DNA from: an uncultured candidatus Porisulfidus sp.
GTDB lineage: Bacteria > Pseudomonadota > Gammaproteobacteria > Poriferisulfidales > Poriferisulfidaceae
Assembly: GCA_965116025.1 (NCBI GenBank)
Contig: OZ220480.1
Location: 608,001 to 672,000 of the forward strand
DNA length: 64,000 bases
Reading direction: 5' to 3'
This document shows, one piece after another, positions 1-23,067 of the stretch (its first letter is position 1; each line of letters starts with the position of its first letter). The notes under the pieces were generated by a model. That model made no database searches, was not told the origin of the DNA, and saw only the letters and a program-made list of their open reading frames with translations. The translations under genes were made by a program, and so were the position numbers.

Positions 1-675
1 ACGCGCCGCAGTAAGCCGGTCTCGCAGATAGGTCAGGTAGGAGTGAATGCCATCGCGCCATGTGTCTCGAAACGCCTTTACCTGCTCTGGCTCGCGAGTA
101 ATCTGCTTGGCGTTGCCATCCTTCACTTCGCGGCTTGTAGTGGACCACTGAAAGTTGGAATTGAATTTGATCCCGTAGGGTGGGTCAATATAGATGCACT
201 GCACCTTGCCTCGCAAACTCTCCCGCTCAGCCAATGACGCCATCACCTGCAGGCTGTCCCCCAAAATCATGCGGTTTGACCAGTTCGCGTCGTGTTGATA
301 GAACTCAGTGCGCGCAGCCTCGCTCGGCAGGCCATTAAAATCGGCAAAGAGATCTAATGTAGTCGGCATCTCTTCCTCTCGCCGCTCCCGTGTCTGCCTC
401 AACAAATCGTCAATTAATGATTTGGGATGCACCTTCTCCTGGATGTAGAGTGGCGGTGCATGAACGATGAATTCGGCCGCATCTTGTTCATCCTTTCCCC
501 GCCAAACCAATTGGGGGTCGAGATCTCGATTACGCCGCTCGTAGGCCACGCGGACAGACTTTTTCTCGTCTTCCGATAGAACGGGCTGGTATTCCGCTGT
601 TGGAATATTGCGCCGTGATGCGTCCTCGTGGACCAGCGTCTCTATCGATTTTTTGTTTCTCTTTTTGCGTGGCAT
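1..675 (-). CDS. mod: Type III restriction-modification Mod subunit (N6-adenine DNA methyltransferase), runs off the left edge
   Basis: Hand translation from ATG 675 (AGGAG RBS): MPRKKRNKKSIETLVHEDASRRNIPTAEY...NRMILGDSLQVMASLAERESLRGKVQCIYIDPPYGIKFNSNFQ; DPPY catalytic motif. Not in the ORF track because it has no stop in the window. Confidence 0.92.
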   Translation of the reverse strand, partial: MPRKKRNKKSIETLVHEDASRRNIPTAEYQPVLSEDEKKSVRVAYERRNRDLDPQLVWRGKDEQDAAEFIVHAPPLYIQEKVHPKSLIDDLLRQTRERREEEMPTTLDLFADFNGLPSEAARTEFYQHDANWSNRMILGDSLQVMASLAERESLRGKVQCIYIDPPYGIKFNSNFQWSTTSREVKDGNAKQITREPEQVKAFRDTWRDGIHSYLTYLRDRLTAAR

Positions 676-685
676 GCTGACGCTC

Positions 686-745
686 CTAGGCCGCTTTGCT
701 CTGGGTTGTGAAGAAAGCGATCAGGTTTTCGAATTCCGACTCAAT
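686..745 (-). pseudogene. Detached 3' end of the type III res gene (IESEFENLIAFFTTQSKAA*)
   Basis: Stop TAG (686-688) overlaps the mod RBS. Joined to res at 11779 it gives FTEVYE-IESEFENLIAFFTTQSKAA*, a plausible native Res C-terminus in frame. Confidence 0.75.
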
Positions 746-975
746 ACCCGCGCGGGTCTCGCGGATTACGGGCTATTAGCCCCTTGATGGTCGATCACCA
801 GTCCTGCGCGGCCCGCGCTTACGCGCCCCGCGTTCGCCCTAATCAGGATCACCGGTTCTAGGCGCTCCCTCGCGCCTCGCGCCCGAACCGAGACCGCGTC
901 CGCATTATCGGACGCGTGACGTGCAAAGCGTGAAGCCCGCCCGAATGGACGGCTAGCGAGTGAGAGGAATTGATG

Positions 976-1211
976 CCCGCGCCGGGTCAAAAGCCCGCGC
1001 GGATCACCTTTTCAGTGTGTGCGTTTTCCATGTAGCACCGGCGAGTCTAGCACACTCGCGGCGCCCTTAAAGCAGAACGCCCGACCTCGCGACCGGGCGC
1101 CCTATCCCTTTGCCGGCAATCAGGGTGCTACATGGACAGCCGGCGGGTGAAATCTTTTTCAGACTCCTTGCCCGAAAGTTTAGCACAGGGTGTCACATTG
1201 TGTGACACCCT
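976..1211 (-). promoter_or_regulatory. Structured regulatory region with two extended -10-like motifs and inverted repeats
   Basis: TGTGCTAAACT (1177-1187) and TGTGCTAGACT (1044-1054) on the minus strand; 13-bp IR TCCATGTAGCACC 1027-1039 / GGTGCTACATGGA 1124-1136; 11-bp IR AGGGTGTCACA-N3-TGTGACACCCT 1187-1211; hairpin 976-1002. Confidence 0.5.
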
Positions 1212-1876
1212 CGCGCCGCCAGTGTGTCCTTTTTGCCACACTTCATTACATCCCGCTTCACGGCCAGCGGGATCGGCGCGAGACAACGCGGGCATACCAG
1301 CAGCTCCTCGATCCGCCGGCGTAACGTCCGCAATTCCTCTTCCTTTCGCGCGAGCTTCCCGGACAACTCCGCTATCAACGCCTTATCGCTGGCCGACGGC
1401 GCGGCGGCCTTCGCCCGCTTGCGACCGCCCCGCGTCCGCTCCGGACGCGGCGGCTTTCCATCCAGCTCGTTCATCGCGTCAAGCGCCGTAGGAAGGGAAA
1501 CGCCCATTTCCTCCGCTATCGCCCGCGCGGACGGCGCCGCCTCGCCCTCGCGCTCCGCCCGCCATCGGTATACCTGTATTCGCGTCTTGCACCGCTCCAG
1601 TTTGCTCACATGGCGCCGCCAGTCATTCACCCGCAAAACGAACGCCGCCGGGTCATCGCCGGCGAACTCGCGCATGCGCGGGGTCGGGTCTCTATAAAGC
1701 GCCAGCATGCACCGGTACCGATGCCAGCCGTCCAGCGCCTTGCCCTCGTATAGCGTGATCTCCACCGAGCCGTCGTCCGTCTTGATGCTCGCCTTCAGCT
1801 CCGCCCGGTCCGCCTCGCCCATCGTTCCGAACGCCGCCGATAGCGGATGCCGTTCAAGGATAGTAAGATTGTCCAT
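1193..1876 (-). CDS. ParB/Srx-like N-terminal domain + HTH + coiled-coil protein (phage-type)
   Basis: HPLSAAF...ELKASIK...ITLYEGKALDGWHRYRC (DGxHR ParB-like motif); SARAIAEEMGVSLPTALDAM HTH; CPRC near the C-terminus; GGGAG RBS before ATG 1876. Confidence 0.7.
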   Translation of the reverse strand: MDNLTILERHPLSAAFGTMGEADRAELKASIKTDDGSVEITLYEGKALDGWHRYRCMLALYRDPTPRMREFAGDDPAAFVLRVNDWRRHVSKLERCKTRIQVYRWRAEREGEAAPSARAIAEEMGVSLPTALDAMNELDGKPPRPERTRGGRKRAKAAAPSASDKALIAELSGKLARKEEELRTLRRRIEELLVCPRCLAPIPLAVKRDVMKCGKKDTLAARGCHTM

Positions 1877-2054
1877 GTCGCACTCCCATGCGATAGCGGC
1901 GCCGCGCATGGCCTGCCCGCGAATATAGGCCGGCGCTGGCGCCCATTAATAAACGGGCATTCCCAGACTCCTAGCCGCCACTAAACGGCCACAATTTTGT
2001 TAAGACGGGAAGAACATCCCGTCAAGCGCGCCAGCGTTGTCGGCGGCCTTGCCC

Positions 2055-2345
2055 CTATTCTATACGCCCCGCGTCTTCATCAACGCTCCGGGGCGGGCGG
2101 CCCGGACGCGGCTTGTCCTCGAGGCCGGCCATCCCCCGCTCCGCGAAGCGATTGCGCCACTTCCTCGCCGTGAAATAGTGAACGCCCAACTTCGCGGCTA
2201 TGCGCGGATTGCTCAATCCCTCCGCCGCGAGCAACACCACCCGCGCCCGTTCGGACTTCGCCCGCGATATGCTCATCTTGCGCGCCCGCCGCTCCAGCTC
2301 CGCGCGCTCCTCATCGGTCAACGTGACCGGTACCGGCTTGCCCAT
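2055..2345 (-). CDS. Helix-turn-helix protein resembling the IS630 transposase N-terminus, without a DDE domain
   Basis: LTDEERAELE...RARVVLLAAEGLSNPRIAAKLGV...RKWRNRFAERGMAGLEDKPRPGRP; stops after ~96 aa. Confidence 0.75.
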   Translation of the reverse strand: MGKPVPVTLTDEERAELERRARKMSISRAKSERARVVLLAAEGLSNPRIAAKLGVHYFTARKWRNRFAERGMAGLEDKPRPGRPPRSVDEDAGRIE

Positions 2346-2425
2346 GAGCAATCATCTTATCCCGCCAACGCGGGGATATGAAACGGGCGGCCAATGCCGC
2401 CCGTCCTCTTTCAGTCTTTCGGAAA

Positions 2426-2644
2426 CTACGCCCCTCGCGCTATCGCTAGCGCTCGCTCCAGCGCCGCGATCGTCGCGTCCACGTGAACGAACAGCAGTTG
2501 GTACTCGCTAGGCTTGAGCTCCTCGCCCGCCCGCGCCCGCTCGTACAGAACGCGAATCATCGAGGCCTTGCCCGCTTGCTCCGGGTAGGCTTCCTTATCT
2601 TGGATAAAGCCTCGCTCCCAGTCTCGCTTCGGGTCTTCCATCAC
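2426..2644 (-). CDS. Hypothetical protein
   Basis: 72 aa; start overlaps the stop of the upstream RTX gene, suggesting translational coupling. Confidence 0.55.
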   Translation of the reverse strand: MMEDPKRDWERGFIQDKEAYPEQAGKASMIRVLYERARAGEELKPSEYQLLFVHVDATIAALERALAIARGA

Positions 2645-3468
2645 CCCATGAACACGAAATCGGACTCCGTCAACTCGTCCGCGCTAATCCCCGTGAGCGT
2701 GACGCTCGCGTTCTTCCCGTACCCGGTGATCACCGCGCCGGCCTCGCTGTCCACGATCGTCAAGTCCTCGTAATCTAACTTCTTGCCGTAGAACACCAGC
2801 TTGTCGCGCCATTCGGGATGGTAGTTTCCTTTCGCGTCGGTATTCCCCGGCCCGGCCCGTTCCGTGATCCACTCCCCTTCATTGTCCGGGTCTGCGTATG
2901 AGTAGGTACCGGAGTTTTCGAGGAAGTCCGTAATCACGTCATGGCCGCTATAGCGGTGAAACTCGAAACGATCCGCTCCCCAGCTCCCTTTCAGCGTGTC
3001 GTCGCCGCGCCCGCCTCGAAGAACGTCCGCGCCCTCGGCGCCGTTCAGCGTGTCGTCGCCACGCCCGCCGTATAGATGACTGTTTCCGCCGCCGCTGTTC
3101 AGCGTGTCGTTCCCGTTCCCGCCGAACAGAACGTCGTGACCCCAGCTGCCGTCCAGCGAGTCGTTCCCGCGCCCGCCGAACAGAACGTCGTGACCCCAGC
3201 TGCCGTCCAGCGTGTCATCGCCCACGCCGCCGTACAGGTAGTCGTTCCCGTCCTTGCCGTCCAGCGTGTCGTCGCCCGCGCCGCCTTTCAGCGTGTCGTC
3301 GCCGCCCTTGCCTTTCAGCGTGTCGGCGCCCGCGCCGCCGGTCAGCGTCACGCCCTCATCATTGGACGGATTGGGAAGGTTATTGGGATCGGGATTAGCG
3401 GGATCGGGATCGCCTTGCTCGGCAAGAAAAGCCTTCTTCCATTTCTGCCACGCGGGAATTCTGGCCAT
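2641..3468 (-). CDS. RTX (hemolysin-type Ca-binding) repeat protein, copy 4
   Basis: Many GGxGxDxL nonapeptides; C-terminal ...LTGISADELTESDFVFMG resembles type I secretion substrate termini. Confidence 0.9.
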   Translation of the reverse strand: MARIPAWQKWKKAFLAEQGDPDPANPDPNNLPNPSNDEGVTLTGGAGADTLKGKGGDDTLKGGAGDDTLDGKDGNDYLYGGVGDDTLDGSWGHDVLFGGRGNDSLDGSWGHDVLFGGNGNDTLNSGGGNSHLYGGRGDDTLNGAEGADVLRGGRGDDTLKGSWGADRFEFHRYSGHDVITDFLENSGTYSYADPDNEGEWITERAGPGNTDAKGNYHPEWRDKLVFYGKKLDYEDLTIVDSEAGAVITGYGKNASVTLTGISADELTESDFVFMG

Positions 3469-3512
3469 GATTTCTCCTCATTGAATTTTGGGTGGATATA
3501 GTCTACTCCATA

Positions 3513-4343
3513 TTACCCCATGAAGTCGAAATCGGACTCGGTCAAGTCGTCCGCGCTAATCCCCGTGAGCGTGACGCTCGCGTTCTTCCCGTACCCGGTG
3601 ATCACCGCGCCGGCCTCGCTGTCCACGATCGTCAAGTCCTCGTAATCTAAATTCTTGCCGTAGAACACCAGCTTGTCGCGCAAGTTTGGATCGTAGTTTC
3701 CTTCCGCGTCGGTATTCCCCGGCCTGCCGCCCTTTTCCATGATAATCTCGGAGGGATTTTCCGGGTCTGGGTATGCGTAGGTAACGTCGTTTTCGAGGAA
3801 GTCCTTAATCACGTCATCGCCGCTATAGCGGTGAAACTCGAAACGATCCGCTCCCCAGCTCCCTTTCAGCGTGTCGTCGCCGCGCCCGCCTCGAAGAACG
3901 TCCGCGCCCTCGCCGCCGGTCAGCGAGTCGTTCCCGCGCCCGCCGTATAGATGGTTGCTTCCGCCGCCGCCGATCAGCGTGTCGTTCCCGTTCCCGCCGA
4001 ACAGAACGTCGTGACCCCAGCTGCCGTCCAGCGAGTCGTTCCCGCGCCCGCCGAACAGAACGTCGTTCCCGTATGAGCCGTTCAGCGTGTCATCGCCCAC
4101 GCCGCCGTACAGGTAGTCGTTCCCGTCCTTGCCGTCCAGCGTGTCTACGCCCGCGCCGCCGTACAGGTAGTCGTTCCCGTTCTTGCCGTTCAGCGTGTCG
4201 GCGCCCGCGCCGCCGGTCAGCGTCACGCCCTCATCATTGGACGGATTGGGAAAATTATTGGGATCGGGATTAGCGGGATCGGGATCGCCTTGCTCGGCAA
4301 GAAAAGCCTTCTTCCATTTCTGCCACGCGGGAATTCTGGCCAT
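3513..4343 (-). CDS. RTX repeat protein, copy 3
   Basis: GGxGxDxL repeats; near-identical to its neighbours except one loop. Confidence 0.9.
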
Positions 4344-4387
4344 GATTTCTCCTCATTGAATTTTGGGTGGATATAGTCTACTCCATA

Positions 4388-5191
4388 TTACCCCATGAAG
4401 TCGAAATCGGACTCGGTCAAGTCGTCCGCGCTAATCCCCGTGAGCGTGACGCTCGCGTTCTTCCCGTACCCGGTGATCACCGCGCCGGCCTCGCTGTCCA
4501 CGATCGTCAAGTCCTCGTAATCCAACTTCTTGCCGTAGAACACCAGCTTGTCGCGCACATCTGGCAAGAGGTTTAATTCATGGTCATAATTTCCTCTCGG
4601 CAGAAGCTGGCCGTCCGAGTCTTCCACGGTGCTACCGGCTTCGAGGAAGTCCGTAATCACGTCATCGCCGCTATAGCGGTGAAACTCGAAACGATCCGCT
4701 CCCCAGCTCCCTTTCAGCGTGTCGTCGCCGCGCCCGCCTCGAAGAACGTCCGCGCCCTCGCCGCCGGTCAGCGAGTCGTTCCCGCGCCCGCCGTATAGAT
4801 GGTTGCTTCCGCCGCCGCCGATCAGCGTGTCGTTCCCGTTCCCGCCGAACAGAACGTCGTGACCCCAGCTGCCGTCCAGCGAGTCGTTCCCGCGCCCGCC
4901 GAACAGAACGTCGTTCCCGTATGAGCCGTTCAGCGTGTCATCGCCCACGCCGCCGTACAGGTAGTCGTTCCCGTTCTTGCCGTCCAGCGTGTCTACGCCC
5001 GCGCCGCCGTACAGGTAGTCGTTCCCGTTCTTGCCGTTCAGCGTGTCGGCGCCCGCGCCGCCGGTCAGCGTCACGCCCTCATCATTGGACGGATTGGGAA
5101 GGTTATTGGGATCGGGATTAGCGGGATCGGGATCGCCTTGCTCGGCAAGAAAAGCCTTCTTCCATTTCTGCCACGCGGGAATTCTGGCCAT
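4388..5191 (-). CDS. RTX repeat protein, copy 2
   Basis: GGxGxDxL repeats; near-identical to its neighbours except one loop. Confidence 0.9.
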
Positions 5192-5235
5192 GATTTCTCC
5201 TCATTGAATTTTGGGTGGATATAGTCTACTCCATA

Positions 5236-6231
5236 TTACCCCATGAAGTCGAAATCGGACTCGGTCAAGTCCGCTTTGGCCGTGTTAAAAATCGTGATGC
5301 TATCGCCCGTTCCGTAGCCGGTGATCGTCACCCCTACCGTCTCGGTGTGATCCACGATGGTCAAGTCCTCGAACTTCCGGTTCGCGTCGCCCTTGATAAC
5401 GATTTTGTCGCCGTCGTCGAAGTGGTTGATCAAGTCGTTGCCATCGCCCGTGCTGAAAACGAACTTGTCTTTACCCTCTCCTATTTCGCCGAACAACGTG
5501 TCATTGCCCTTGCCGCCGATCAGCGTGTCGGCGCCCGCGCCGCCGACCAGCGTGTCGTTGCCATCGTCGCCGATCAGCGTGTCATCGCCCGCGTCGCCGA
5601 ACAGCGTGTCTACGCCAGCGCCGCCATGCAGCTCGTCGTTGCCAGCGCCGCCGTACAGGCGGTCTACGCCAGCGCCGCCGTACAGGTAGTCGTTGCCCAC
5701 GTCGCCCACCAGGTGGTCGCCGCCCGCTTCGCCGTACAGGTAGTCGCCGCCCTCGCCGCCATACAGCGAGTCGTTGCCCGCGCCGCCCCACAGGTAATCC
5801 TTCGCGCCGGCCTTGAGAGGCGCCCAAGAATCGCCCCACAGATAGTCATCGCCCAGCCCGCCCCACAGATGGTCGGTTCCGCCGCCGCCGATCAACTTGT
5901 CATCGCCCGTGATGGTATTCCAATAAGTCGGGGAATTGGTATCGCCCCAAAGCTTGTCATCGCCCCTGCCGCCGAACAGAAAGTCTTTACCCGAGCCGCC
6001 ATACAGAAGGTCTTTACCCGAGCCGCCATACAGAAAGTCGTCACCAAGGCCGCCATGCAGCTCGTCGTTTCCATCACCTCCCCATATATAGTCTCTATCG
6101 CCTTCGCCATACAGGTAATCGCGACCGCCTTTGCCATACAATTTGTCGATGCCGTCTCGAGCTAGCATGATATCGCTTTCTTCGGTACCTTTCTTGATAT
6201 TGTTTCCGTCTGTTCCTATCCAACTCGCCAT
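5236..6231 (-). CDS. RTX repeat protein, copy 1 (divergent, longer repeat tract)
   Basis: About 20 GGxGxDxL repeats; same [11 protein letters not shown]-terminus; GGAGGA RBS. Confidence 0.9.
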   Translation of the reverse strand: MASWIGTDGNNIKKGTEESDIMLARDGIDKLYGKGGRDYLYGEGDRDYIWGGDGNDELHGGLGDDFLYGGSGKDLLYGGSGKDFLFGGRGDDKLWGDTNSPTYWNTITGDDKLIGGGGTDHLWGGLGDDYLWGDSWAPLKAGAKDYLWGGAGNDSLYGGEGGDYLYGEAGGDHLVGDVGNDYLYGGAGVDRLYGGAGNDELHGGAGVDTLFGDAGDDTLIGDDGNDTLVGGAGADTLIGGKGNDTLFGEIGEGKDKFVFSTGDGNDLINHFDDGDKIVIKGDANRKFEDLTIVDHTETVGVTITGYGTGDSITIFNTAKADLTESDFDFMG

Positions 6232-6361
6232 GACCTTATCCTCCAGTGTGATTATTAGTATCGGACTTCCCGCGTGTAAGTCGGCATAAATCTAATCAGG
6301 CCATGCCAGTATTTATGCTGAATTGTTTGCGGACGCGAAGTCCGGCGGCTAGTGTAGCAGA

Positions 6362-6700
6362 TTAGGAAAACTTGGAATAGGCGGCCTCGAAGCCGGCTTT
6401 ATGACCCGCCATCCACTCCTCCGTTAGCGTCTTCGCGGTCAAACTCGCGCCCGCGATCTCCGGCGCGATAGCCCGAAGCGTTGCCGCCGCATGGTATTTC
6501 AGATGCTTCGCGGACACCGGATAGGTTTCGGGCCATTCCCCCCGCTCGGCCAGCGCCCGCCCGTCATAAAAGCCCCGCCCGTAGGCCGAATACCAGACCG
6601 ACCGAGAGGCGTAAGCCCGATCCGTCGCGCCGATCGCCGGCCAGTCGATCGGCGTTCCCTCGATCTCGTCCGCGCCCAGATAGTGTCGTATTCCGCTCAT
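6362..6700 (-). CDS. Hypothetical phage-element protein
   Basis: 112 aa, co-oriented just downstream of the portal gene. Confidence 0.6.
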   Translation of the reverse strand: MSGIRHYLGADEIEGTPIDWPAIGATDRAYASRSVWYSAYGRGFYDGRALAERGEWPETYPVSAKHLKYHAAATLRAIAPEIAGASLTAKTLTEEWMAGHKAGFEAAYSKFS

Positions 6701-6724
6701 CGCTCAGATCCTCTCAGTTGATGA

Positions 6725-7759
6725 TTATTCCTCTCTCGCGCCGACCAGCGCCGCCGCGTGATCCTCGTTCATGCCGCCGTCCACGAATCCTTTAAAGGCC
6801 CGCGCCCGCGCCGCCATATCGCTCGCCATCAGCGCGTCGAACGTAATCTTGACCTCGCCCCCCACTTTCCGCGCCAGCTCCGCCGCCATGATCTCGCCAA
6901 GCCCCTTGCAGGTCGTGTGCGCGAAGCGCCTATACGCCTCGCGGCTATCCTTCTCCCCCGCGCCGTCCAGCCCCACCAGCACCGGACTCACGCCCAACGC
7001 TCCAAGTATTTCGACCGCCAGTTGCCGGCGTAGCGTGAGCAGTTGCCCGCTAGGATCGGGCGCCAGCTTAGTAACGCCGTAGTCCTTGCGCGGCGCGTCC
7101 GATGGACTCCCCCATCCCCCCGCCGTCGTGTTCGGGAAGATAAGCCCGCCTTCCATTATGTAGTCCGCCGTTTGACTGGGCCTCCGGACGTTCGGATAGG
7201 GCAAGGGAACGATCCACGTCGTTTTGATTGCCGAGTCGTCCTTGATAGCCCGCTCCACCGCCGCCGCTATCGAACTGGTAGCGGCCGCGATGCCAAGCGG
7301 CCCGACCGACCGCCAGGGGGCCTCCGGAGTTTCGGCGTAGCGAAAGTGCAAGACCTCGCGCCCGCGAAGTTTCCGCGTTGACTGGCCGCCAGGCGCGGCC
7401 AGATCGAGCGCGTACTCCCACCCGTTCATCGGGTCAAGGTCCGCCCCGTCCACGTCGAATGACGCGGCGAAGTATTGACCGAGCCGCCCATCCGGTTCCA
7501 CCCAGAACTGGGCCGCCGATTCCCCGCGCCGGAGCATCCTCCGGACGTGCGGCGCGAGATCGGTTCCGCGCAGGATCGCCGGCGAGACGTCCGCGCAAGC
7601 GAACGCCCGGACGATCAGCCCCACGCCGGCCTCGAACGCCGCCAGCGCGTCCGACCGAAACCAATTCATCGCCGCCAGATAACGCGCCTCCAGGCGCAGG
7701 TCGGTGTAATCCCGGCCCCGCGCCCGCGTCTCGCGCCGGCCTTTCAGCCAGCCGAACAC
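6725..7759 (-). CDS. Phage portal protein (HK97-like, compact)
   Basis: N-terminal FGWLKGRRETR; EVLHFRY...PWRSVGPL; EILGALGVSPVLVG; ARARAFKGFVDGGM; coupled to the capsid stop. Confidence 0.8.
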   Translation of the reverse strand: MFGWLKGRRETRARGRDYTDLRLEARYLAAMNWFRSDALAAFEAGVGLIVRAFACADVSPAILRGTDLAPHVRRMLRRGESAAQFWVEPDGRLGQYFAASFDVDGADLDPMNGWEYALDLAAPGGQSTRKLRGREVLHFRYAETPEAPWRSVGPLGIAAATSSIAAAVERAIKDDSAIKTTWIVPLPYPNVRRPSQTADYIMEGGLIFPNTTAGGWGSPSDAPRKDYGVTKLAPDPSGQLLTLRRQLAVEILGALGVSPVLVGLDGAGEKDSREAYRRFAHTTCKGLGEIMAAELARKVGGEVKITFDALMASDMAARARAFKGFVDGGMNEDHAAALVGAREE

Positions 7760-9105
7760 TACGCTACCTTGAACTCGACACGCTTATACGCGGCGGATCT
7801 GAGGACGGCGAAATTCCAAAGCGAGCAGATCGTTAATGCGATCTCGCCTTGACTTGCTCGCGTATAGCGGTCCTCGATGATCTCCAGCCCCCACATGGGC
7901 GCCACCGCGTCCATCCCCATACCGCCGGAGCGGTAAATGAGTCCGGTCTCGATATTGCTAGACGGAGCCGGAATGAGCGCCGAACACCGAACGCCCCCCG
8001 TCTTGTCTTGCAGGTAATCGATCGCGCACAGATCGCCTTTATTGCTATTCGCTTGCACCTCGCCGGCCAGCGCGTAAGCCTTCACGCCTAACACGCCCCG
8101 AAGCTCCGAGCGCATGGCGGCGTGCTTGCCGTCCACCGCCTCGCCAAAGGTGTTCAGGAAAGACGAATAGGTCGCCTTCGCGGACGGATTCGTTGGATTG
8201 CTCAACGCCGCGATGATCCCCGTAGGGTTCGGCGCCGTTCCATTGCCGTTCAGGATCGCGTCGTCCGTCTCTTCCGTGACCGCCCGGGACATATCCCCGC
8301 GCAACGCCTCATCCAGGCCATGCACCCGATGCGCGTCCTCGGTTCGGTAGATATACCGAGCCGCCAGGCGGACGGGCTTCAGGTCGTTCGCCGTGATAGT
8401 GGCGGCTTGCGCGTCTTTCGCGCTCCCCGCCGCCTTCATCTCAGGACTCACGCCCGCCGTCAGGACGGGATAACTGGCCTCGCCAACGCCGACCTGCTCG
8501 AACGACACGCCTAGATGCGCTCCCACCGTGCGCGAGAATATGCGCTGAACGATATTCGGTTGCCGCGTCGGCCCCGACACGCTCGCGCCGACCGAAGTGG
8601 CGACGTCCGCGCGGGTTTCCAACGCCTCCCAGGGGAGGAGCAGTCCGCCGCCCGCCCCGCGCGCGTCACGCGAGCCGTACAGCTCGTCCGAGAGCTCGCC
8701 TTCCGCGCCATCCGGACTCCGCCCGTCGATGAACGCCCGCAAGTAATTCCGCACCGACACCCGCCCCGCGAGCGTCTGGAGTCTTCCATTCGGTTCCACC
8801 GCGCTAGATGGCTTGCCTCGCGTCTCCAACGGCGGGCCGACGCCCGACGGCGCTTCGCGCGAGCAGGCGTCCGTCTCTAATTGCGCGAGCAGCTCCTCCG
8901 CTTGGCGGCGCAGGTCCTCGAACTCGAGGACTCGCTTCTCGTGATCCGCCGTGCGCGCGGTGTACTCCGCGCCGCCGGCCTTGCCGTCTTCCCGCAACGC
9001 TTTTAGGCGCTTGGATATTTTCTCCATATCGCCCATGCGATCCTGCATGGCCTCCCGCGTCTCGCGCAAGCGAGTATTGATAGCGAAATGATTAATAGTG
9101 GTCAT
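7759..9105 (-). CDS. Phage major capsid protein (HK97 fold) with N-terminal coiled-coil scaffold domain
   Basis: GGAGG RBS, ATG 9105; helical N-terminus; DDAILNGNGTAPNPTGII; IIEDRYTRASQGEIAL; FAVLRSAAYKRV. Confidence 0.88.
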   Translation of the reverse strand: MTTINHFAINTRLRETREAMQDRMGDMEKISKRLKALREDGKAGGAEYTARTADHEKRVLEFEDLRRQAEELLAQLETDACSREAPSGVGPPLETRGKPSSAVEPNGRLQTLAGRVSVRNYLRAFIDGRSPDGAEGELSDELYGSRDARGAGGGLLLPWEALETRADVATSVGASVSGPTRQPNIVQRIFSRTVGAHLGVSFEQVGVGEASYPVLTAGVSPEMKAAGSAKDAQAATITANDLKPVRLAARYIYRTEDAHRVHGLDEALRGDMSRAVTEETDDAILNGNGTAPNPTGIIAALSNPTNPSAKATYSSFLNTFGEAVDGKHAAMRSELRGVLGVKAYALAGEVQANSNKGDLCAIDYLQDKTGGVRCSALIPAPSSNIETGLIYRSGGMGMDAVAPMWGLEIIEDRYTRASQGEIALTICSLWNFAVLRSAAYKRVEFKVA

Positions 9106-9121
9106 AATGCCTCCATTAGGT

Positions 9122-9445
9122 TTAATTGATTGATGCCATCCGTTCCCGGACGGCCTCCGCCCAAGCGTTCCGCTTGGGATTCCGTGAGCGGCGCGGCAAG
9201 CGTCTTCCCCCGCGCCCTCGATGCTCCTTCTCATGGCAACGCCAGCACAGCGTGACGCAATTCGCCATCCGCCAGGCGTCCGCCGTGACCTCCCCGAATT
9301 GGATCGCCGGCTTGACGTGATGCACCACCAGCCTCCGCAGGTAATCCCCGCAATGCCGGCAACGCCAGCCGTCGCGCTCCATCACGGCCAGCCGCATACG
9401 CTTCCATAAACGCGAGCCGTAGAAACGATCCTTCGCGGAGCTCAT
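9122..9445 (-). CDS. HNH endonuclease (cos-packaging associated type)
   Basis: FYGSRLWKRMRLAVMERDGWRCRHCG...VHHVKP...NCVTLCWRCHEKEH. Confidence 0.92.
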   Translation of the reverse strand: MSSAKDRFYGSRLWKRMRLAVMERDGWRCRHCGDYLRRLVVHHVKPAIQFGEVTADAWRMANCVTLCWRCHEKEHRGRGGRRLPRRSRNPKRNAWAEAVRERMASIN

Positions 9446-11007
9446 AGCGCCATCCCCAGCTCGTCCAGCGTGAAGTGGATCGCCGGCGCGTCCGCCGCCG
9501 CGTCTTCCGCCTCGCGCCTCCGTCCGGACTCCGCTACCGCGAGCATGACCGCGCAGGCCAAGTCATTCCGTCCGCCAGGCCGCGCCCCGTCCGGCGGCGC
9601 CTTGACCAGCACCGGCTTGCCCATCACGTTTATGCGAACCTCCGCCGCCGCCAGCGAGCCGCGTAGCGTGAGAGATCGCCGCGCCCGAACGTTGCGGTTC
9701 AAGACTTCCCGCCGAAACTGCAAAGCGTCTTCCGCGCCGTGCAGTTGCCCCATGCCTCGCCAGACCATCTGGACTCCGTCCAGCCCGTGAGTCCGGAGCG
9801 CGTCCATCAGCTCGCCTTGCCTATACCGATCGGCGACGACCACATGGGGCCGCCCCCACCGCTCGAGCGCGGCCCCGATCACGTCCGCCGGCGGCGGCAC
9901 CCGTTGCCCGTCCGAGACTCTGAGATCCCCCTCCTTCCTCATCGCCTCGTACAGCCCGGTCTGCACCCGGTCGTTCCGCTCCCGATCCTCGATGCCCGGT
10001 ATGCCGCCAACGACCGCGAAGCCGTCGACGTGTCCTTCCCCATCGCAAGCCGCCGCCGCCGACCACGCCGCCGATCCCCCCAGGTCGATCCCCAACGCGA
10101 ACGGCGAGCCGATCGCCAGCCCGTCCTCCTCGATCGCGCCCCAGTCCGCCGCGTCTATCAGCGGTTCCCGCAACCTCTCGCTGATTCCCAGATTCAGCCG
10201 CAACGCCCGGAACGACCGGGCGAATATGTCATCCTTTCGCGCCCGCGCAAGGTCGGCCTTGACCTCGCGCCGAAGCGTGTCCGTCATTCCCGGATTCGCC
10301 CGTAGGCAATTCTTCCAAGTCAATTCGTCATCCGCCGCCTTATGGACTTGCGCGTAGCAGTCCGGCGCCCCCTCATTCACCAGCCGCGCCATCCAATGCG
10401 TAGGCGAGGACGGGAACGTCGACAGCGCGATCATTCGCGCCGCCTCCACCTTGCCCGCCGCCGTCGTTATCGCGGAGAACACCCTATCGGCCTCCGTCTG
10501 TTTCAGTTGCGCGGGTTCATCGACCAGCCACCATCGACAGCCCTCGCCATGAAGAGACTCCGGACGCGGCGAGACGGCGCGATAGCGGATCGCCCGCCGC
10601 CGGTTAAAGATGCTGAAAGAGTTGGCCGAGTCCGTGATCCGCCAGTTGGAGCGGTCGGCCTCTATCAACGGCGCCAAGTAATCGAGGACGAAACGCCCCA
10701 AGCGCTTCGCCCCCGCGAACGTGTGAGACACCGACACTATGTCCGTCCGCTCGACCGCGTCCGGACGCGCCAGCTCCACCGCCGCCAACGCCCCGATAAA
10801 CGCCGTCTTGCCTCCCCCGCGCCCCATCGAGAGCAAGGCTATCCGCGTGTCTTTCGCGTATACTCCCGCCAAGAACTGCTTTTGCCAGTCCCTCAGGGCG
10901 AAGCGTTGCCCACGCAACGGGCCTTCCGCTACGCGCAAGCGCCCGATCATCTGGGCGACCCGCGCCGCACCAGTAAGTTGCCGGGGGGTGTTAGATCGGC
11001 GGATCAT
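9442..11007 (-). CDS. terL: Terminase large subunit
   Basis: LRDWQ Q-motif, Walker A MGRGGGKT, Walker B WLVDEP, ANPG, nuclease GIDLGG and NDLACA; exact start uncertain. Confidence 0.9.
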   Translation of the reverse strand: MIRRSNTPRQLTGAARVAQMIGRLRVAEGPLRGQRFALRDWQKQFLAGVYAKDTRIALLSMGRGGGKTAFIGALAAVELARPDAVERTDIVSVSHTFAGAKRLGRFVLDYLAPLIEADRSNWRITDSANSFSIFNRRRAIRYRAVSPRPESLHGEGCRWWLVDEPAQLKQTEADRVFSAITTAAGKVEAARMIALSTFPSSPTHWMARLVNEGAPDCYAQVHKAADDELTWKNCLRANPGMTDTLRREVKADLARARKDDIFARSFRALRLNLGISERLREPLIDAADWGAIEEDGLAIGSPFALGIDLGGSAAWSAAAACDGEGHVDGFAVVGGIPGIEDRERNDRVQTGLYEAMRKEGDLRVSDGQRVPPPADVIGAALERWGRPHVVVADRYRQGELMDALRTHGLDGVQMVWRGMGQLHGAEDALQFRREVLNRNVRARRSLTLRGSLAAAEVRINVMGKPVLVKAPPDGARPGGRNDLACAVMLAVAESGRRREAEDAAADAPAIHFTLDELGMAL

Positions 11008-11697
11008 CTGGGGGGTATCCAGGTAATGCCGCCGGATACCCCCCGGCTATATGTACTCGAAGCATATTCATCATGGATGCCATCCTAGATGAAGTCCGCG
11101 CCATCTGTCAATAGCCTAATTCGCCAAGCGAGATCGCGCCCCGCCAGGGGTATACCCCCCTCCCTCTCGCCGACAAAAAAAAAGTGTAGCGGTAAAGCGC
11201 ACTTTTCCCGGCTAGACACGTTTTGCCCGTGAAGCCCGCAGGGTTCCCTAAACTCGATAGATTTCCCGCGATCTCGCGCCCGCCTCGCGCCTCGCGCCCT
11301 CATTCACCCGCCCCGAACGCGCAAGCCCCCCACGCGCGATTTACGCGCCTTCCTCGATGCCCGAAATTGACCGAAAAGTGCAACTTTTCCGCGCTCGCGC
11401 CCGCCTCGCGTAGCTTCTCACCACCGCTCGGTAGCGGCTTGCCGCCGACCCGTATTGACGGATGCCATTGGCCGCCTAGCGATCGTTTCAGCACAGCGCC
11501 TAGCGCGCGGCTTTGGATAATTCCCTTCGCTTAAAGGCGAAGCGAGGAATTATCGCGCCGCTCGCTTAGGCGCGTAAGCGGCGTTGACCCGCCCGCAACG
11601 CGGGCGTATCTGTCCTATACCCTAATAGCGTGAAGCGATTCGGCAAGCCGGACTTCACTGGGCGCTACTCACGGCGGGCGCTTCGCCCTTTTCAGCC

Positions 11698-14600
11698 CTA
11701 TGTCATTCCAACGGCGGGCCTAATTTCCGCTTTCGCAGGCGCTTCGCGGCCTCTCATAAGGCGGCTTGGCCGGGCTTTCTCATACACCTCGGTGAACTCA
11801 GTGAAACTCCAACGTCCGAATTTTTCGAGCGCGTTCACACCAGGCACCCAATACGTATCCATGGTCGCCTTCTTCGCCTTGGCATCCTCTCCCCGATAGC
11901 CCTTGATTTCTACGACCAAGTGCAGAAGGTCATCAGGACCCCGTCCGTCATCCACCAGAACGATGAAATCTGGAATGTAGATTCGCGTCTTCGCTCCATA
12001 CCGATAGGGCACCTTGAAATCCAATCCATGATTCTTGATGTAGGACCGCACCTTTGAATGGGCCTCCGCGACTCGACAGAATTCGGCTTCCCAACTACTA
12101 TCGCATACGACCCAGTTAACGTGGCTTTGATCAGAGGCGGTCTTCCATAACGTTTTCTTTGATGTCGTGAAATTGACGTTGGTTGTAGATCCAACTGGGT
12201 TGTAAGGATCCAAGACCGCTTTGACTGGACGCGCGCCCACATTCTGGGCGACTATACCTTGCGTGATACGCTCGCAAGCCATGTCCGCGAGTGATGGATA
12301 CATCAGCTGCGCCATAGAGGTTCCACCTCTGCAGACGAGGTGATGATCCAGCCAGTGACGCGTGATTCGCTTGAGCTGACCGAACAAATAAACTTTTGGC
12401 TCTTCGTTCGAGTCATGCCATTTCGTTTCCAGTAGTCGCTTTGTCAGGTGATACAGCAAGGTAGTGCGACGCAAACCGCCCGTGTCGACCAGTCTCAGAT
12501 CCACTCCCTCACCGATTATGCCCTCGTTACGGATCTTAGTCGGCCCCACAAGATCGGGAGTTAACTCCAGCGTCGAATCTTCACTGAACGTTGCATGCAG
12601 AAAATCTTCTGGTAGATCGACTCGGTAGCCCGCGACACGTGGGAAACGGATTTCGCAAGCATCCCGCTCCGGCGTGATCGCCTTGACATGAACGGTCTTG
12701 CGAGGCGGTTGCGGTGGCGCGACCACGGGTTTCGCGGTAAAGTCAAAAGGAATTCCGAACACGTCCGCATACTCCACGGGAAGCATGCCCTCATCGTTCA
12801 ACTCATAGGATTGCCGGCGGAGCGCCCTGCCTACCGCTTGCTCGCACAAAAGTTGGGTGCCAAAAGCGCGAACACCGAGAACATGGGTAACGGTGTTGGC
12901 ATCCCATCCTTCTGTCAACATCGAAACAGAGACCACGCAACGGATCGTTTCGCCCAATTGTCCTTTTTTGCCAACAGTGTTCAGAACTTCGCGCAACAGG
13001 TCCTGATCGGCAATATTATCGCCGTCACGAATGTCGCCAGTGCGCCGAATGCGGTCGCGACGAAAGCGCTCAATTTCATCTACCGCGATCTTGTGAAAAC
13101 TTGGATCCAAGGCATCTCCAGATTCAATTTGCTCGCTATCGATCAAGAGAGTGCGCGGTCGCCCTAATGGAACACCATGGTCATCAAAATTTCGGAACAG
13201 GTCAAGATGGCCGTTGACTAGGGTTTGCGAACCATCCTGTTGCTTTTTATGGAATCCCGCGATGTAGTCGTAGATCAACTTTGAGGTCGATGTGTTGTTG
13301 CAGATCACGATAAAACAGGGAGGAACATCTATGCCAGCGTCGCACCAAAAGTCAAAGGTTTTTTTGTAGTCGCCATAGATAGCATCCAATGCTGTCTGCA
13401 ACATCACCGGAAGATGGCGAGGATCCTGATCGATTCTTTGGCGCCTTTTTTTTGGCATATCTGCACCGATATGCTCCCATAGATTGCGGTATTTCGGCAT
13501 GTCGCCATCAGCGATATTGTCGGCCACTGGCACTCGCGGCAATTTGACGATCCCGCACTCAATCGCGTCCATCAGCGAGAAGTCGCTGACAGTCCAAGGA
13601 AACAGCGTCCCTTCCGCATAACCCGATCCACTCAGGAAAAAAGGTGTCGCGGACAAGTCGATGGCGCGCGGGCCCACGGATGCCGGACGGTTCTCCGGCA
13701 TCCCTTTGTTGAGCGTGCGCGTAACCGCCTCCAATCCAGAAACCCAGAGCCTCGCGGCCTCTCGATTCTTTTTTGCCTCCTCGCGCGAATCACCCCGTAG
13801 CTGATCCCTTTCAACATCTGGCTTCTCCCGATAGCAGTGGTGCGCCTCGTCATTCAATATGAGCACGTTCCTCATGCCCATGAGCTTGGGCATCACCCGC
13901 TGGAGCATCTGCCCTTCCGTTTCTGTGGAACACAGATCCGGGCCGCGGCCCTGGAGAAACGCCCGACCGCCTTTCGATAAGTTCATCGTGTCTCGGAGCT
14001 TGAAGGCGTGATAGTTGGTGATCACGATCTGCGCGCGGTTCAAGTCATTCAACATGTCTCCGGGAACGAGCTCTCGACTTTGATAGTAGCTGTCCGGGTC
14101 ATTCGGCTGAAGAACTCGGAGACGGTCCTTGATAGTAATGCCCGGAGTGACGACGAGAAATCCCCGGGTAAAACGATGGCTGGACGGGTGGCGAACCGCG
14201 TTGATCGTCTGCCACGCGATCAGCATAGCCATGACCGTGGTCTTGCCCGCGCCAGTCGCCAGTTTCAGCGCCAGCCTTTCCAGACCCGGGTTGGCTTGCT
14301 CGTTCACGCCACGTATGTGATCAAGAAACTGTTTTCCGGTTTTATCAGAGGGCGCGACTTCGGTCAGCCAAATCACCGTCTCGACGGCCTCAAGCTGACA
14401 AAAGAATGGGCGGTAATGGCTGAATTTATGGTGATGCCAGTGATCCAGCAGATGCTCCGTCTCCGGTGTTACTCGAGATTTCAACAGGTTTCGATTTGAC
14501 CTCCATCTGTCTACAGCGCCACGAACGTTATTGATGGCATCCTCCAGTTCGTATTCTTGGCCATCGATTTGTCGCGTTGGCTCATCTACAGCCAAATTTC

Positions 14601-14775
14601 GCTGTGCAGTGCGCTGTCTTGGTCGGGGAATCGGCGTAATGAAGGATACCTTACGCCGCTCCTCGATAATTTTTTCTGTAGGCTGGCCGCTATCGTCGAG
14701 TTCCCAATGACGTGATGGAATCTCGTAAGGAGAATTCAGGACGGGACACTTAAAAAACTCTTGGGAACGGTCCAT
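11698..14775 (-). CDS. res: Type III restriction enzyme Res subunit; last 26 aa come from the inserted element
   Basis: Walker A LATGAGKT, DEAHH, MLTEGWD, QAVGRALRR, PDFIV...VEIKG nuclease; likely start MDRSQEFFKCPVLNSPYE. Confidence 0.92.
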   Translation of the reverse strand: MDRSQEFFKCPVLNSPYEIPSRHWELDDSGQPTEKIIEERRKVSFITPIPRPRQRTAQRNLAVDEPTRQIDGQEYELEDAINNVRGAVDRWRSNRNLLKSRVTPETEHLLDHWHHHKFSHYRPFFCQLEAVETVIWLTEVAPSDKTGKQFLDHIRGVNEQANPGLERLALKLATGAGKTTVMAMLIAWQTINAVRHPSSHRFTRGFLVVTPGITIKDRLRVLQPNDPDSYYQSRELVPGDMLNDLNRAQIVITNYHAFKLRDTMNLSKGGRAFLQGRGPDLCSTETEGQMLQRVMPKLMGMRNVLILNDEAHHCYREKPDVERDQLRGDSREEAKKNREAARLWVSGLEAVTRTLNKGMPENRPASVGPRAIDLSATPFFLSGSGYAEGTLFPWTVSDFSLMDAIECGIVKLPRVPVADNIADGDMPKYRNLWEHIGADMPKKRRQRIDQDPRHLPVMLQTALDAIYGDYKKTFDFWCDAGIDVPPCFIVICNNTSTSKLIYDYIAGFHKKQQDGSQTLVNGHLDLFRNFDDHGVPLGRPRTLLIDSEQIESGDALDPSFHKIAVDEIERFRRDRIRRTGDIRDGDNIADQDLLREVLNTVGKKGQLGETIRCVVSVSMLTEGWDANTVTHVLGVRAFGTQLLCEQAVGRALRRQSYELNDEGMLPVEYADVFGIPFDFTAKPVVAPPQPPRKTVHVKAITPERDACEIRFPRVAGYRVDLPEDFLHATFSEDSTLELTPDLVGPTKIRNEGIIGEGVDLRLVDTGGLRRTTLLYHLTKRLLETKWHDSNEEPKVYLFGQLKRITRHWLDHHLVCRGGTSMAQLMYPSLADMACERITQGIVAQNVGARPVKAVLDPYNPVGSTTNVNFTTSKKTLWKTASDQSHVNWVVCDSSWEAEFCRVAEAHSKVRSYIKNHGLDFKVPYRYGAKTRIYIPDFIVLVDDGRGPDDLLHLVVEIKGYRGEDAKAKKATMDTYWVPGVNALEKFGRWSFTEFTEVYEKARPSRLMRGREAPAKAEIRPAVGMT

Positions 14776-14958
14776 GTTGAATTGGTCTTTGGTTGAATAT
14801 TCTGGCCCGCTCTGATAGCGTGGCAAATCGCGTATTTCGCCACCCCCCATCCCTGCGCGATTCCACTGCTTTCTGGAGCGTCTCTATTTGAAGGTATGTG
14901 CTATCTGTTGTCAAGATCAGCCAGCGACGCGCCCAGCCTTGGCGGATCAGCCATCGAT

Positions 14959-15003
14959 TCACTTCTCGATCAACTCCTGATATCGGTCCAGCGATTTAGG
15001 CAT
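14959..15003 (-). pseudogene. Possible truncated N-terminus of the restriction endonuclease partner of the C5 MTase
   Basis: ATG overlaps the MTase stop (ATGCCTAA); encodes MPKSLDRYQELIEK* only. Confidence 0.35.
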
Positions 15004-16326: not shown

Positions 16327-16461
16327 GGTTCCGCTCCTGACTCCTCCCCGGGATCGTCGCGACCATCTTATCTCCCTCAGTATCCCGCTCCGGCAGACCA
16401 CCCATCCAACGCGGCGAAAAAGCGCGCTGAGACCACCCCCCGAAACCGCGGGGGGGCAGAG

Positions 16462-22991: not shown

Positions 22992-23067
22992 TGGTGCCGG
23001 CGAGAGGAATCGAACCCCCGACCTACTGATTACGAAACAGTTGCTCTACCGACTGAGCTACACCGGC
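22992..23067 (-). tRNA. tRNA-Thr (CGT)
   Basis: GCCGGTGTAGCTCAGTCGGTAGAGCAACTGTTTCGTAATCAGTAGGTCGGGGGTTCGATTCCTCTCGCCGGCACCA; 76 nt, encoded CCA. Confidence 0.95.

Follow-up and report, generated by a model that had tools for sequence, protein, structure and literature searches.

Gene content of the inserted block

The window, a 64,000-nucleotide stretch from the genome of an uncultured candidatus Porisulfidus sp., carries an inserted block of 11,019 bp at positions 760-11778, with ends placed by contigs assembled from read runs. The block has genes on the minus strand only, in the order TerL, HNH endonuclease, HK97-fold capsid protein, portal, a 112-aa ORF, four RTX genes, a 72-aa ORF, an IS630-like HTH protein and a ParB-HTH protein. 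This order and the shared orientation were described in the first-pass annotation and are confirmed by the ORF list and by family searches.

The first four genes form a packaging and head module. TerL (9442-11007, minus strand; 521 aa) is of the HK97/HK022 type (PF03237; phrog_9, E 7.8e-36); its nearest matches among cultured phages are HK022-like phages at 27% identity, and an alignment against eight relatives shows that Walker A, Walker B and the three acidic motifs of the nuclease are kept. The HNH endonuclease (9122-9445, minus; 107 aa; PF01844, E 1.1e-7; phrog_144, E 7.7e-18) overlaps the TerL stop by 4 nt at its start. The major capsid protein (7759-9105, minus; 448 aa; PF05065, 29.2 bits against a cut-off of 24.2) is already on record as the exact 448-aa product. 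TIGR01554 scores under its cut-off on this protein, and the AlphaFold model is weak (pLDDT 59); the best Foldseek matches are all HK97-fold capsids or encapsulins (E 1e-7). In the model, capsid residues 3-84 make up two long N-terminal helices reminiscent of a delta or scaffolding domain, the kind of scaffold-like domain that the phage protease removes from HK97-type heads. The portal (6725-7759, minus; 344 aa; PF04860, 40.2 bits against a cut-off of 39.1) starts within the capsid stop and can be aligned over its whole length with 10 relatives (331-363 aa). As none of the four ORFs has a frameshift or stop in the window copy, and with the TerL motifs kept, the portal full-length and stop-start overlaps in both TerL/HNH and capsid/portal, the initial description of these head genes as intact and coupled holds.

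The remaining genes have a different character. The 112-aa ORF (6362-6700, minus), which is associated with RTX cassettes, has no family match in profile searches. It occurs five times in the genome, and the window copy alone is intact; the other four are fragments or bear stops, and three of these adjoin RTX genes or RTX fragments. The array of RTX calcium-binding repeats spans 2641-6231 and consists of four minus-strand genes (5236-6231, 4388-5191, 3513-4343 and 2641-3468; PF00353, E 5e-68 to 8e-39) with products of 331, 267, 276 and 275 aa, three of the genes being tandem paralogues (82-88% identical). One variant of the array, seen in read run X2, joins 3302 to 5033 and has two copies fewer. 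At the end of the cassette lies the 72-aa ORF (2426-2644, minus), with copies elsewhere in the genome at 884362-884577 (98.6% identical) and 412084-412242 (45%). The 98-aa HTH protein (2055-2351, minus; PF13551, E 1.3e-14) resembles the N-terminus of an IS630 transposase (NF033545 positions 1-62 of 299) and has a second copy, 94% identical, at genome positions 884655-884951. The last gene (1193-1876, minus) encodes a 227-aa protein assigned a ParB N-terminal domain from the names of homologues and a weak HTH_36 match (E 0.008, below the cut-off); it ends in a C-terminal Cys pair, and its 216 homologues include several whose sources call them "ParB N-terminal domain" or "ParB-like", with the 227-aa form itself on record. 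This RTX/ParB half is paralogous to genome positions 880217-885470. It recurs elsewhere in the same genome as one partial copy, 88% identical at the nucleotide level, and as several decayed pieces. The half with the RTX array, at first taken for the element's own cargo, is therefore not private to it.

Non-coding DNA flanks these genes. The 771-bp leader upstream of TerL (11008-11778, minus) contains iterated GC-rich repeats and a palindrome at about 11517-11556 but no credible ORF, and its one promoter-like site (11111-11082) is no more than expected by chance. The left terminal region (760-1192) is likewise non-coding; window positions 779-1010 are 79% identical to genome positions 759829-760060, which adjoin an IS fragment. 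A 17-nt repeat occurs near the block's two ends only, at 868-884 and 11283-11299.

Among the 14 ORFs scanned in 746-11778, there is no family match to an integrase, primase, TerS, protease, connector, tail or holin protein, and the integrase profile PF00589 has no match in the block, in agreement with the absences listed in the first-pass annotation (integrase, primase, small terminase, protease, connector and tail genes). The only regulators present are the IS630-like HTH and ParB-HTH proteins.

Insertion site and boundaries

The block sits between the res and mod genes of a restriction-modification pair, with the nearest tRNA gene at 22992-23067. On its right, res (11779-14850, minus) encodes a Type III-like restriction enzyme of the BPTD_3080 family (NF046055, 1278 bits against a cut-off of 800). 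Homology to its relatives breaks off at window position 11779 in four of four cases, the relatives aligning only as far as residue 1024, and the last 26 codons (11701-11778) and stop (11698-11700) are now supplied by the block. From these alignments, the insertion appears to have replaced the conserved res tail. On the left, positions 1-675 (minus) hold the start of mod, a Type III methyltransferase (PDLC03632 positions 74-430, the N piece). This gene is further split by an IS630 element, with a DDE_3 transposase between the N piece and the C piece (PDLC03632 positions 471-983). All four distant relatives carry res and mod on one strand, 0.8-2.2 kb apart, without such a block.

Read-run contigs fix the edges. 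In run X2, contigs of the block start exactly at 760 and stop exactly at 11778, and depth over the block is 465-489 versus 28 in the flank (about 17-fold). In run X3, a single contig links 11780 to 654 with a 65-nt spacer; this is the empty site for which a search had been proposed, from a related strain with res joined to mod. The X3 contig alone would put the left edge anywhere within 655-760, and it is the exact start of the X2 contigs that places it at 760. The sharp boundaries first noted are thus borne out by the X2 contig ends and by the end of res homology at 11779, whereas the original extent (746-11778; 11,033 bp) keeps its right edge and loses 14 bp on the left. Both junctions show the 4-bp sequence TCTC, at 757-760 and at 11778-11781. 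The block has exact ends, is present in some strains and absent from others, and has moved recently as one unit.

That the junctions are chimeric, or that the block is ancestral DNA deleted from other strains, is very improbable. The sole feature pointing that way is an abrupt change in G+C at the flanks; the block-free res-mod pairs of all four distant relatives and the replacement of the conserved res tail argue against it. In addition, short-read contigs of run X1 cross both junctions with 0-1 differences, a result that tests the assembler rather than biology if, as is possible, X1 is the source sample. An assembly chimera was ruled out on the X1 crossings, the exact X2 ends and the X3 empty site together.

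A second copy and the genomic setting

A 99%-identical copy of the block occurs on a different contig of 23,925 nt, where variant TerL, ParB, 112-aa and RTX proteins are found together. No relatives at least 90% identical to res, the N piece of mod, the 920-aa ORF or the DAO gene are on record anywhere, and the second, near-identical copy, judged by these searches, stands in another context. The two assemblies differ at 6 of 521 residues in TerL, 6 of 227 in ParB, 3 of 112 in the 112-aa ORF and 22 of 267 in an RTX protein; counts of contigs with the exact sequence suggest that portal and HNH are identical. This lower divergence of head than of accessory proteins fits purifying selection on the head genes. 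The capsid of the 23,925-nt contig is called as a 218-aa ORF that is identical over its first 217 residues and then ends, which could be an assembly or sequencing indel.

These data also bear on whether the block belongs to a larger replicon, some 22-24 kb long (small phage, phage-plasmid or larger island), whose remainder carries the missing functions, with the window copy an inserted fragment. Such a replicon would account for the high X2 depth, with contigs breaking exactly at both ends, and for three contigs of like size: the 23,925-nt contig with the 99% variant, one of 21,842 nt with a capsid at 63% identity and one of 23,744 nt with a ParB protein at 58% identity. ParB-type proteins, a label that here derives partly from homologue names, are also common on plasmids and phages. 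We nevertheless judge this reading improbable. The similar contig sizes may be coincidental, the 21.8-kb contig has no portal or ParB relative in our searches, and the block has capsid and portal side by side, which leaves no room for a protease in its usual place.

The 2.02-Mb genome encodes one capsid and one portal, with no second of either, and two tyrosine recombinases, each distant from the block, of which one was scanned and proved Xer-type, with a DUF484 gene as its neighbour. Genome-wide family searches returned no S78 protease (PF04586), no Terminase_4 (PF05119, the one family used for TerS) and no Phage_connect_1 (PF05135). By gene content, then, a resident helper prophage is missing from the genome. 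There is another TerL (44% identical) next to an RTX gene, a pseudogene interrupted by an IS630. The block was not found in the other 15 species of the genus, and the capsid profile matches two of 53 genomes of the order. An RcGTA-like gene transfer agent was considered and rejected, as there are no tail genes and the capsid is found in 2/53 genomes of the order and in 0/15 of the other species of the genus.

Fuller relatives of the head module

The closest parallels to the head module are islands of about 10 kb that integrate at tRNA genes. Seven Vicinamibacterales loci share it (TerL in 6/7, HNH in 7/7, capsid in 7/7, portal in 6/7), and the IMG/VR contig L036 has TerL-HNH-capsid-portal in the same order; identity between this family and the window block is 35-46% over nearly full length. 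By clustering, six of the seven Vicinamibacterales loci also encode an integrase family, of which the three scanned are P4-type. The relatives further encode an S78 protease (E 2.5e-17), AlpA (E 1e-16), replication-initiator and primase-like proteins, and a Neck1/tail-completion protein (phrog_5, E 1.2e-9); the protease, a small ORF and the Neck1 connector lie between and after the head genes. tRNA genes are present in five of the eight loci scanned (four of seven from Vicinamibacterales, plus L036) and stand at the island edge in L002, L003, L004 and L036. TerS was recognised in none of the relatives. Because they carry a P4-type integrase, AlpA, a replication gene, the S78 protease and the Neck1 connector, these fuller relatives look, in gene content, like capsid-forming PICIs (cfPICIs). 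The window block shares their syntenic TerL-HNH-capsid-portal module but has neither a P4-type integrase nor an edge tRNA.

Searches with the relatives' extra genes by tblastn gave only noise in the block at E<=10 and nothing in the genome at E<=0.01. AlpA and Neck1 of L036, the relatives' 104-aa ORF and their replication and primase proteins have no match in the block, and tblastn found no pseudogene trace of the missing genes there. A parallel for the gene arrangement comes from G032, of another family of the same taxonomic order, in which the capsid is followed directly by the portal at 35% identity with no protease between. Since G032 has the same pair, the arrangement is old rather than a private deletion. 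The G032 copy is plainly decayed, without TerL and with IS debris around it.

The first-pass interpretation is borne out in part, but its proposal of an undescribed class of element does not survive this comparison, as the head module has its place in a family in which the fuller members have an integrase, AlpA, a replication gene, S78, Neck1 and a tRNA. The first-pass annotation had named closest homologues in complete prophages as evidence against itself. What we found comes near to that, with complete satellites in place of prophages and homologues that otherwise do have the missing genes.

Comparison with known systems

According to the available text of the satellite survey (PMC10085698), the SatelliteFinder model for cfPICIs has 11 core components and accepts 9-11; the block has four, namely HNH, TerL, portal and capsid. 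Like cfPICIs as outlined there, it is tail-less and holin-less, measures about 10-14 kb and has its own TerL, HNH, HK97-type capsid and portal. Unlike them, it has no integrase, AlpA/MerR/Stl regulator, primase-replicase, TerS, prohead serine protease or head-decoration component, or connector. The relatives L036, L003, L004 and L007 add an integrase, AlpA, a replication or primase gene, a serine protease and a connector, and the hosts here fall outside the taxa that the same text names for that survey (PMC10085698).

With the HK97/HK022 module, the block shares its TerL type (27%), an HNH gene beside TerL and an HK97-fold capsid with N-terminal helices; it lacks TerS, the protease and a gp6-/gp7-type connector, and its portal follows the capsid and is short (344 aa). 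Gene order also sets it apart from cfPICIs, which run HNH-terS-terL-portal-protease-capsid as against TerL-HNH-capsid-(protease)-portal here. Cryptic prophage and satellite remnants resemble the block in missing full-cycle genes, in IS-rich surroundings and in having other relics in the genome, but differ from it in that the window head genes are free of frameshifts and stops and that the block, whose ends are exact, varies between strains. Finally, PICMIs are described in the accessible part of their report as minimalist satellites without capsid-remodelling genes (PMC10803314). They are alike in reduced gene content and heavy helper dependence, whereas the block encodes a capsid, a portal and TerL.

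Origin and status of the block

Our favored reading, held with moderate confidence, is that the block is a stripped-down, probably non-autonomous and probably defective derivative of the family of capsid-forming satellite islands of about 10 kb. It would have been gained by horizontal transfer and built of two halves. One would be the DNA-packaging and head module of tail-less, tRNA-integrating satellite-like islands; in the other, where the relatives have an integrase, AlpA and a replication gene, the block has the RTX cassette, the IS630-like HTH and the ParB-HTH genes. It would have entered the res-mod spacer by a route requiring no integrase encoded in the block; the junctions share 4 bp and no more. 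The retained genes could cut cos-type DNA and package it into small proheads, and the block alone would be unable to excise, amplify, mature heads or attach tails. Lacking an integrase, a replication gene, a maturation protease and a head-tail joining protein, it is most likely non-autonomous and probably defective. The absence of the fuller relatives' extra genes from both block and genome supports the derivative reading. So do the synteny of the head module with these relatives, the discreteness and mobility of the block, the 218-aa capsid ORF on the 23,925-nt contig, the paralogy of the RTX/ParB half, the TerL pseudogene and the rarity of the block in its genus and order.

Several observations run the other way: the head ORFs are intact and coupled, the divergence between the two assemblies fits purifying selection on the head genes, G032 shows the same arrangement, no pseudogene trace is seen, the block moved recently as a unit and has about 17 times the depth of its flank in X2, and the 218-aa capsid ORF could be an indel of assembly or sequencing. 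It is possible, if doubtful, that, in line with the first-pass reading, the block is a working, integrase-less, minimal capsid-forming satellite that makes its own small heads, packages itself with TerL/HNH, depends on a helper for induction, protease, head-tail joining, tails and lysis, and spreads RTX genes. Its ORFs are motif-complete, its ends are exact, a related strain has the empty site, another copy stands in a different context, and its head proteins diverge less than its accessory proteins between the two copies. The protease-less capsid-portal pair of G032, the 17-nt repeat confined to the two ends and the match of 11 kb to the roughly 10-kb size of fuller relatives are further points for it, and the relics in the genome (the TerL pseudogene by an RTX gene and four 112-aa ORF copies in decay, three of them adjoining RTX genes or fragments) suggest repeated invasions. 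Yet we know of no satellite with its own capsid that does without protease, adaptor/connector, TerS, integrase and replication gene together. The capsid keeps the scaffold-like N-terminus that an HK97 protease would remove, its reading frame in the other assembly stops at 218 aa, no helper prophage resides in the genome and the G032 copy is decayed. Only four of the 11 cfPICI core components in the available survey text are present (PMC10085698).

Rather unlikely, in our view, is a broader claim: a capsid-encoding satellite lineage without integrase, protease, connector and replication genes that still moves as an exact 11-kb unit and inserts without a site-specific recombinase, for example as packaged linear DNA at a 4-bp microhomology or through helper-supplied functions. 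Given such a lineage, the RTX cassettes of this small genome would stem from repeated invasions, with the TerL pseudogene and decayed 112-aa ORFs as their scars.

If the block is only a relic, as the derivative reading would have it, it amounts to an ordinary part of a mobilome that is decaying and rich in IS elements. It nonetheless directs attention to capsid-forming, tail-less, tRNA-integrating islands of about 10 kb in Acidobacteriota-type MAGs, a group left unnamed in the available text of the satellite survey. Relic or working, the insertion splits a restriction-modification pair and gives a concrete case in which a mobile element disables a defence locus. Should the block be functional, the minimum gene content of a satellite with its own capsid would have to be set lower than before, and the block would represent satellite-borne spread of secreted RTX proteins.

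Gene content of the block

The source genome is a single contig of 2.02 Mb (62.7% G+C, 99.4% complete), of which the window covers 608001-672000, and all credible genes of the inserted block at 760-11778 lie on the minus strand. The head module comprises TerL (9442-11007); HNH (9122-9445), whose start overlaps the TerL stop by 4 nt; capsid (7759-9105); and portal (6725-7759), whose start overlaps the capsid stop. In the remaining half, also on the minus strand, four RTX genes follow a 112-aa ORF; beyond them come an ORF of 72 aa, a protein of 98 aa whose HTH is of the IS630 type, and a protein that combines a ParB N-terminal domain with a weak HTH_36. Integrase, primase, small terminase, protease, connector, tail, and lysis families returned no match in a scan of 14 block ORFs. 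Across the genome, family searches recovered one PF05065 capsid and one PF04860 portal, and none of PF04586, PF05119, or PF05135. The scan and the genome-wide counts therefore confirm the inventory of the first-pass annotation, including the genes it listed as missing. Tyrosine recombinases number two in the genome; the one scanned is Xer-type and adjoins a DUF484 gene.

The description of the head genes as intact and coupled likewise holds. Stops and starts overlap; the Walker A, Walker B, and nuclease motifs of TerL are conserved in an alignment with eight relatives; and the portal is full-length, aligning end to end with 10 relatives. The nearest cultured relatives of TerL are HK022-like phages, at 27% identity. 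The predicted structure of the capsid is weak (pLDDT 59) and was taken as a guide to fold class only; two long N-terminal helices are visible in the model, and its best Foldseek matches are all HK97-fold shells. Intact, coupled genes favor the original reading of the block as a working, integrase-less satellite, which on the whole of the evidence we consider rather unlikely.

Relatives of the head module

Of the candidates scored from a 5.8-billion-protein collection, no more than 29 proved to be relatives of the capsid. A scan of species-representative genomes found seven loci, all in Vicinamibacterales MAGs (L002-L008); IMG/VR contributed one 10.5-kb contig (L036), and a metagenome scan a single, uninformative locus of 4.3 kb. 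The capsid had no tblastn match in phages and one plasmid record at 28% identity. Plasmid megablast of window 1-12000 gave short matches only, to mod and RTX, with no annotated gene beneath the Methylibium match.

In the Vicinamibacterales loci and L036 the head genes run TerL-HNH-capsid-portal, as in the block, to which they are 35-46% identical; further genes are present. An S78 prohead protease and an ORF of ~104 aa, a putative head-tail adaptor that has no Pfam or PHROGs match, are sited between capsid and portal, and in L036 a Neck1/tail-completion protein lies 3' of the portal. AlpA and a replication-initiator-like or primase-like protein were also found; each of these five features is present in some of the eight loci. 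A P4-type integrase family occurs in six of the seven MAG loci by clustering (three scanned) and in L036. Four of the eight loci (L002, L003, L004, and L036) have a tRNA gene at the island edge, and in L004 the span from tRNA to integrase is ~10 kb. L004 and L005 are two copies in one genome. These loci are tail-less islands of ~10 kb that look like capsid-forming satellites in Acidobacteriota. As far as the description in PMC10085698 extends, the SatelliteFinder plan for capsid-forming PICIs comprises 11 core components, tail and holin genes being absent; the fuller relatives correspond to this plan but differ in gene order and hosts, and the block retains 4 of the 11 components.

No trace of the relatives' protease, 104-aa ORF, Neck1, integrases, AlpA, replication, or primase proteins was detected by tblastn in the block or in the genome. 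By itself the block has no way to excise, to replicate, to cleave off the scaffold-like domain of the capsid, or to attach tails, and the genome has no resident helper; both points weigh against function. We lean, by a modest degree, toward the block being a stripped-down, probably non-autonomous derivative of the satellite family to which these relatives belong.

Candidate replacements for the missing parts did not hold. The 112-aa ORF as a hidden adaptor scored a probability of 0.5% by hhalign against the relatives' 104-aa ORF, and its Atlas search gave low-score leads only (top 0.83). Were the ParB-HTH protein the counterpart of the HTH_36 replication protein encoded immediately 5' of TerL in L036, the block would be a cos-to-cos permuted form. 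This idea was dropped: the two proteins have no similarity (BLASTP E 0.89), and a tRNA lies directly 5' of TerL in L002 and L004, so a terminal TerL is the normal integrated layout.

Within the host's order, the capsid profile matched 2 of 53 genomes; the genus itself, with 15 further species, gave no other match. The second match, in G032, a genome from another family, is an HNH-capsid-portal series without TerL, surrounded by IS debris; its capsid and portal genes abut, as the window's do. This protease-less layout in a distant copy is a point in favor of a working satellite. Taken as a whole, the G032 locus (L034:3261-4958 and 12497-16678) is a decayed relative in which a Prim-Pol/VapE-type primase, duplicated small ORFs, and a portal fragment precede this TerL-less HNH-capsid-portal; IS fragments occur throughout.

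Boundaries and movement

The block separates res (11779-14850), a Type III-like restriction gene of the BPTD_3080 family (1278 bits; cut-off, 800), from mod (1-675), a Type III methyltransferase. In four of four relatives the pair runs res then mod on the same strand, spaced by 0.8-2.2 kb, and in all four the homology to the window res ends at 11779; the final 26 residues of the window ORF come from the block. Homologues of res occur in 20 of 300 genomes, a tally that takes in the unpublished genomes G079, G180, and G334, on whose sequences no conclusion here depends. A precise-insertion model was rejected, as in silico removal of the block leaves the res tail of distant relatives unrestored; the tail in this lineage is therefore naturally short or partly lost. 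The mod gene continues past the left end of the window, where an IS630-family element encoding a DDE_3 transposase of 377 aa interrupts it (L012:8731-12675; genome 604731-608675). With mod split and the res tail replaced, the whole pair is probably dead.

The 4-bp TCTC is the sole sequence common to both junctions; no terminal inverted repeats or long att-like direct repeats were found. A 17-nt direct repeat, present in the 64-kb window only at 868-884 and 11283-11299, has one copy near each block end. Iterated GC-rich repeats also occur in the leader, as does a palindrome at ~11517-11556. Promoter and terminator scans gave site numbers not above chance, and Rfam reported tRNA only in window 1-24000.

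Contigs from three public sequencing runs of one study (X1-X3) were compared with window 1-16500; among the runs listed as carrying the sequence, none was of RNA. X1 contigs span both junctions at a depth close to that of the block (~50). X1 may be the source sample, and these contigs rule out an assembler chimera and nothing more; a chimeric junction is not borne out, and we regard the block as an artefact with hardly any probability. In X3, a single 7,390-nt contig, ~90% identical, links 11780 to 654 via 65 nt, and so supplies the empty site, in a related strain, for which the first-pass annotation had proposed a search. X2 carries a block copy ~1% divergent, whose contigs start exactly at 760 and stop exactly at 11778 at depths of 465-489; its flank contig is identical to the window at a depth of 28. 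The sharp boundaries claimed earlier are thus real, as the end of res homology in the relatives also indicates, and recent movement of the block as an exact unit speaks for a working satellite. The joint from 11778 to 760 is absent among the 15 of 41 joints listed, which neither show nor exclude a circular form; the letters beside the contig ends argue against a simple direct junction only.

The strain-specific X2 flank contig runs from 11749 to ~23600, just beyond tRNA-Thr (22992-23067). Here a larger island specific to the strain may end, one that would include res, a C5 methyltransferase, and a TonB-dependent receptor of 1201 aa.

Exact-sequence look-ups placed variant TerL, ParB, 112-aa ORF, and RTX protein together on a single contig (23,925 nt) from another assembly, with residue differences of 6/521, 6/227, 3/112, and 22/267, respectively. 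For res, the N-terminal part of mod, the neighboring 920-aa ORF, and the nearby DAO gene, no relative at ≥90% identity is recorded anywhere; the block is therefore present in at least two contexts. We infer that this contig and the X2 variant, which has two fewer RTX copies, are one and the same. Head proteins diverge less between copies than accessory proteins do, which speaks for function; the capsid ORF annotated in the other assembly, at 218 aa, weighs against it. That the block is a fragment of a larger replicon of 22-24 kb seems to us improbable.

The RTX/ParB half and its relics

Two stretches of the block have counterparts elsewhere in the genome: window 1548-3549 matches genome 885464-883512 at 88% identity, and window 6389-6520 matches 880348-880217 at 90%. 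The paralogous locus (L028:6217-11860; genome 880217-885860) is a partial copy from the 112-aa ORF through ParB at 88-90% nucleotide identity. It has two RTX genes, a 1,866-bp IS inside the 112-aa ORF, and a ParB broken after ~residue 122; this IS is also present, in full, at two or more other sites in the genome. Of five genome copies of the 112-aa ORF, the window's alone is intact, and three of the other four stand beside RTX genes or fragments. A second TerL, 44% identical, has an IS630 interruption and a degenerate C-terminus (L029:8207-13185; genome 804207-809185). Immediately upstream of it are an RTX gene (478 aa) and an ORF of 105 aa, which makes this a second TerL-RTX neighborhood in the 2-Mb genome. 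RTX-repeat genes occupy approximately nine separate loci in 2.02 Mb, many in tandem, with the C-terminal ~100 residues conserved. Elsewhere in the order (52 genomes), the 112-aa ORF and ParB were not convincingly found, with one marginal match each (E 2e-4 and 8.5e-4, respectively). The relics within this genome suggest repeated invasions, again in keeping with a working satellite.

Overall, there is good support for the composition of the block, for its ancestry, and for its discreteness. With copies and remains at other sites in the genome, the RTX cassette, like the genes that accompany it, belongs to the mobilome of this strain rather than being private cargo of the head module.
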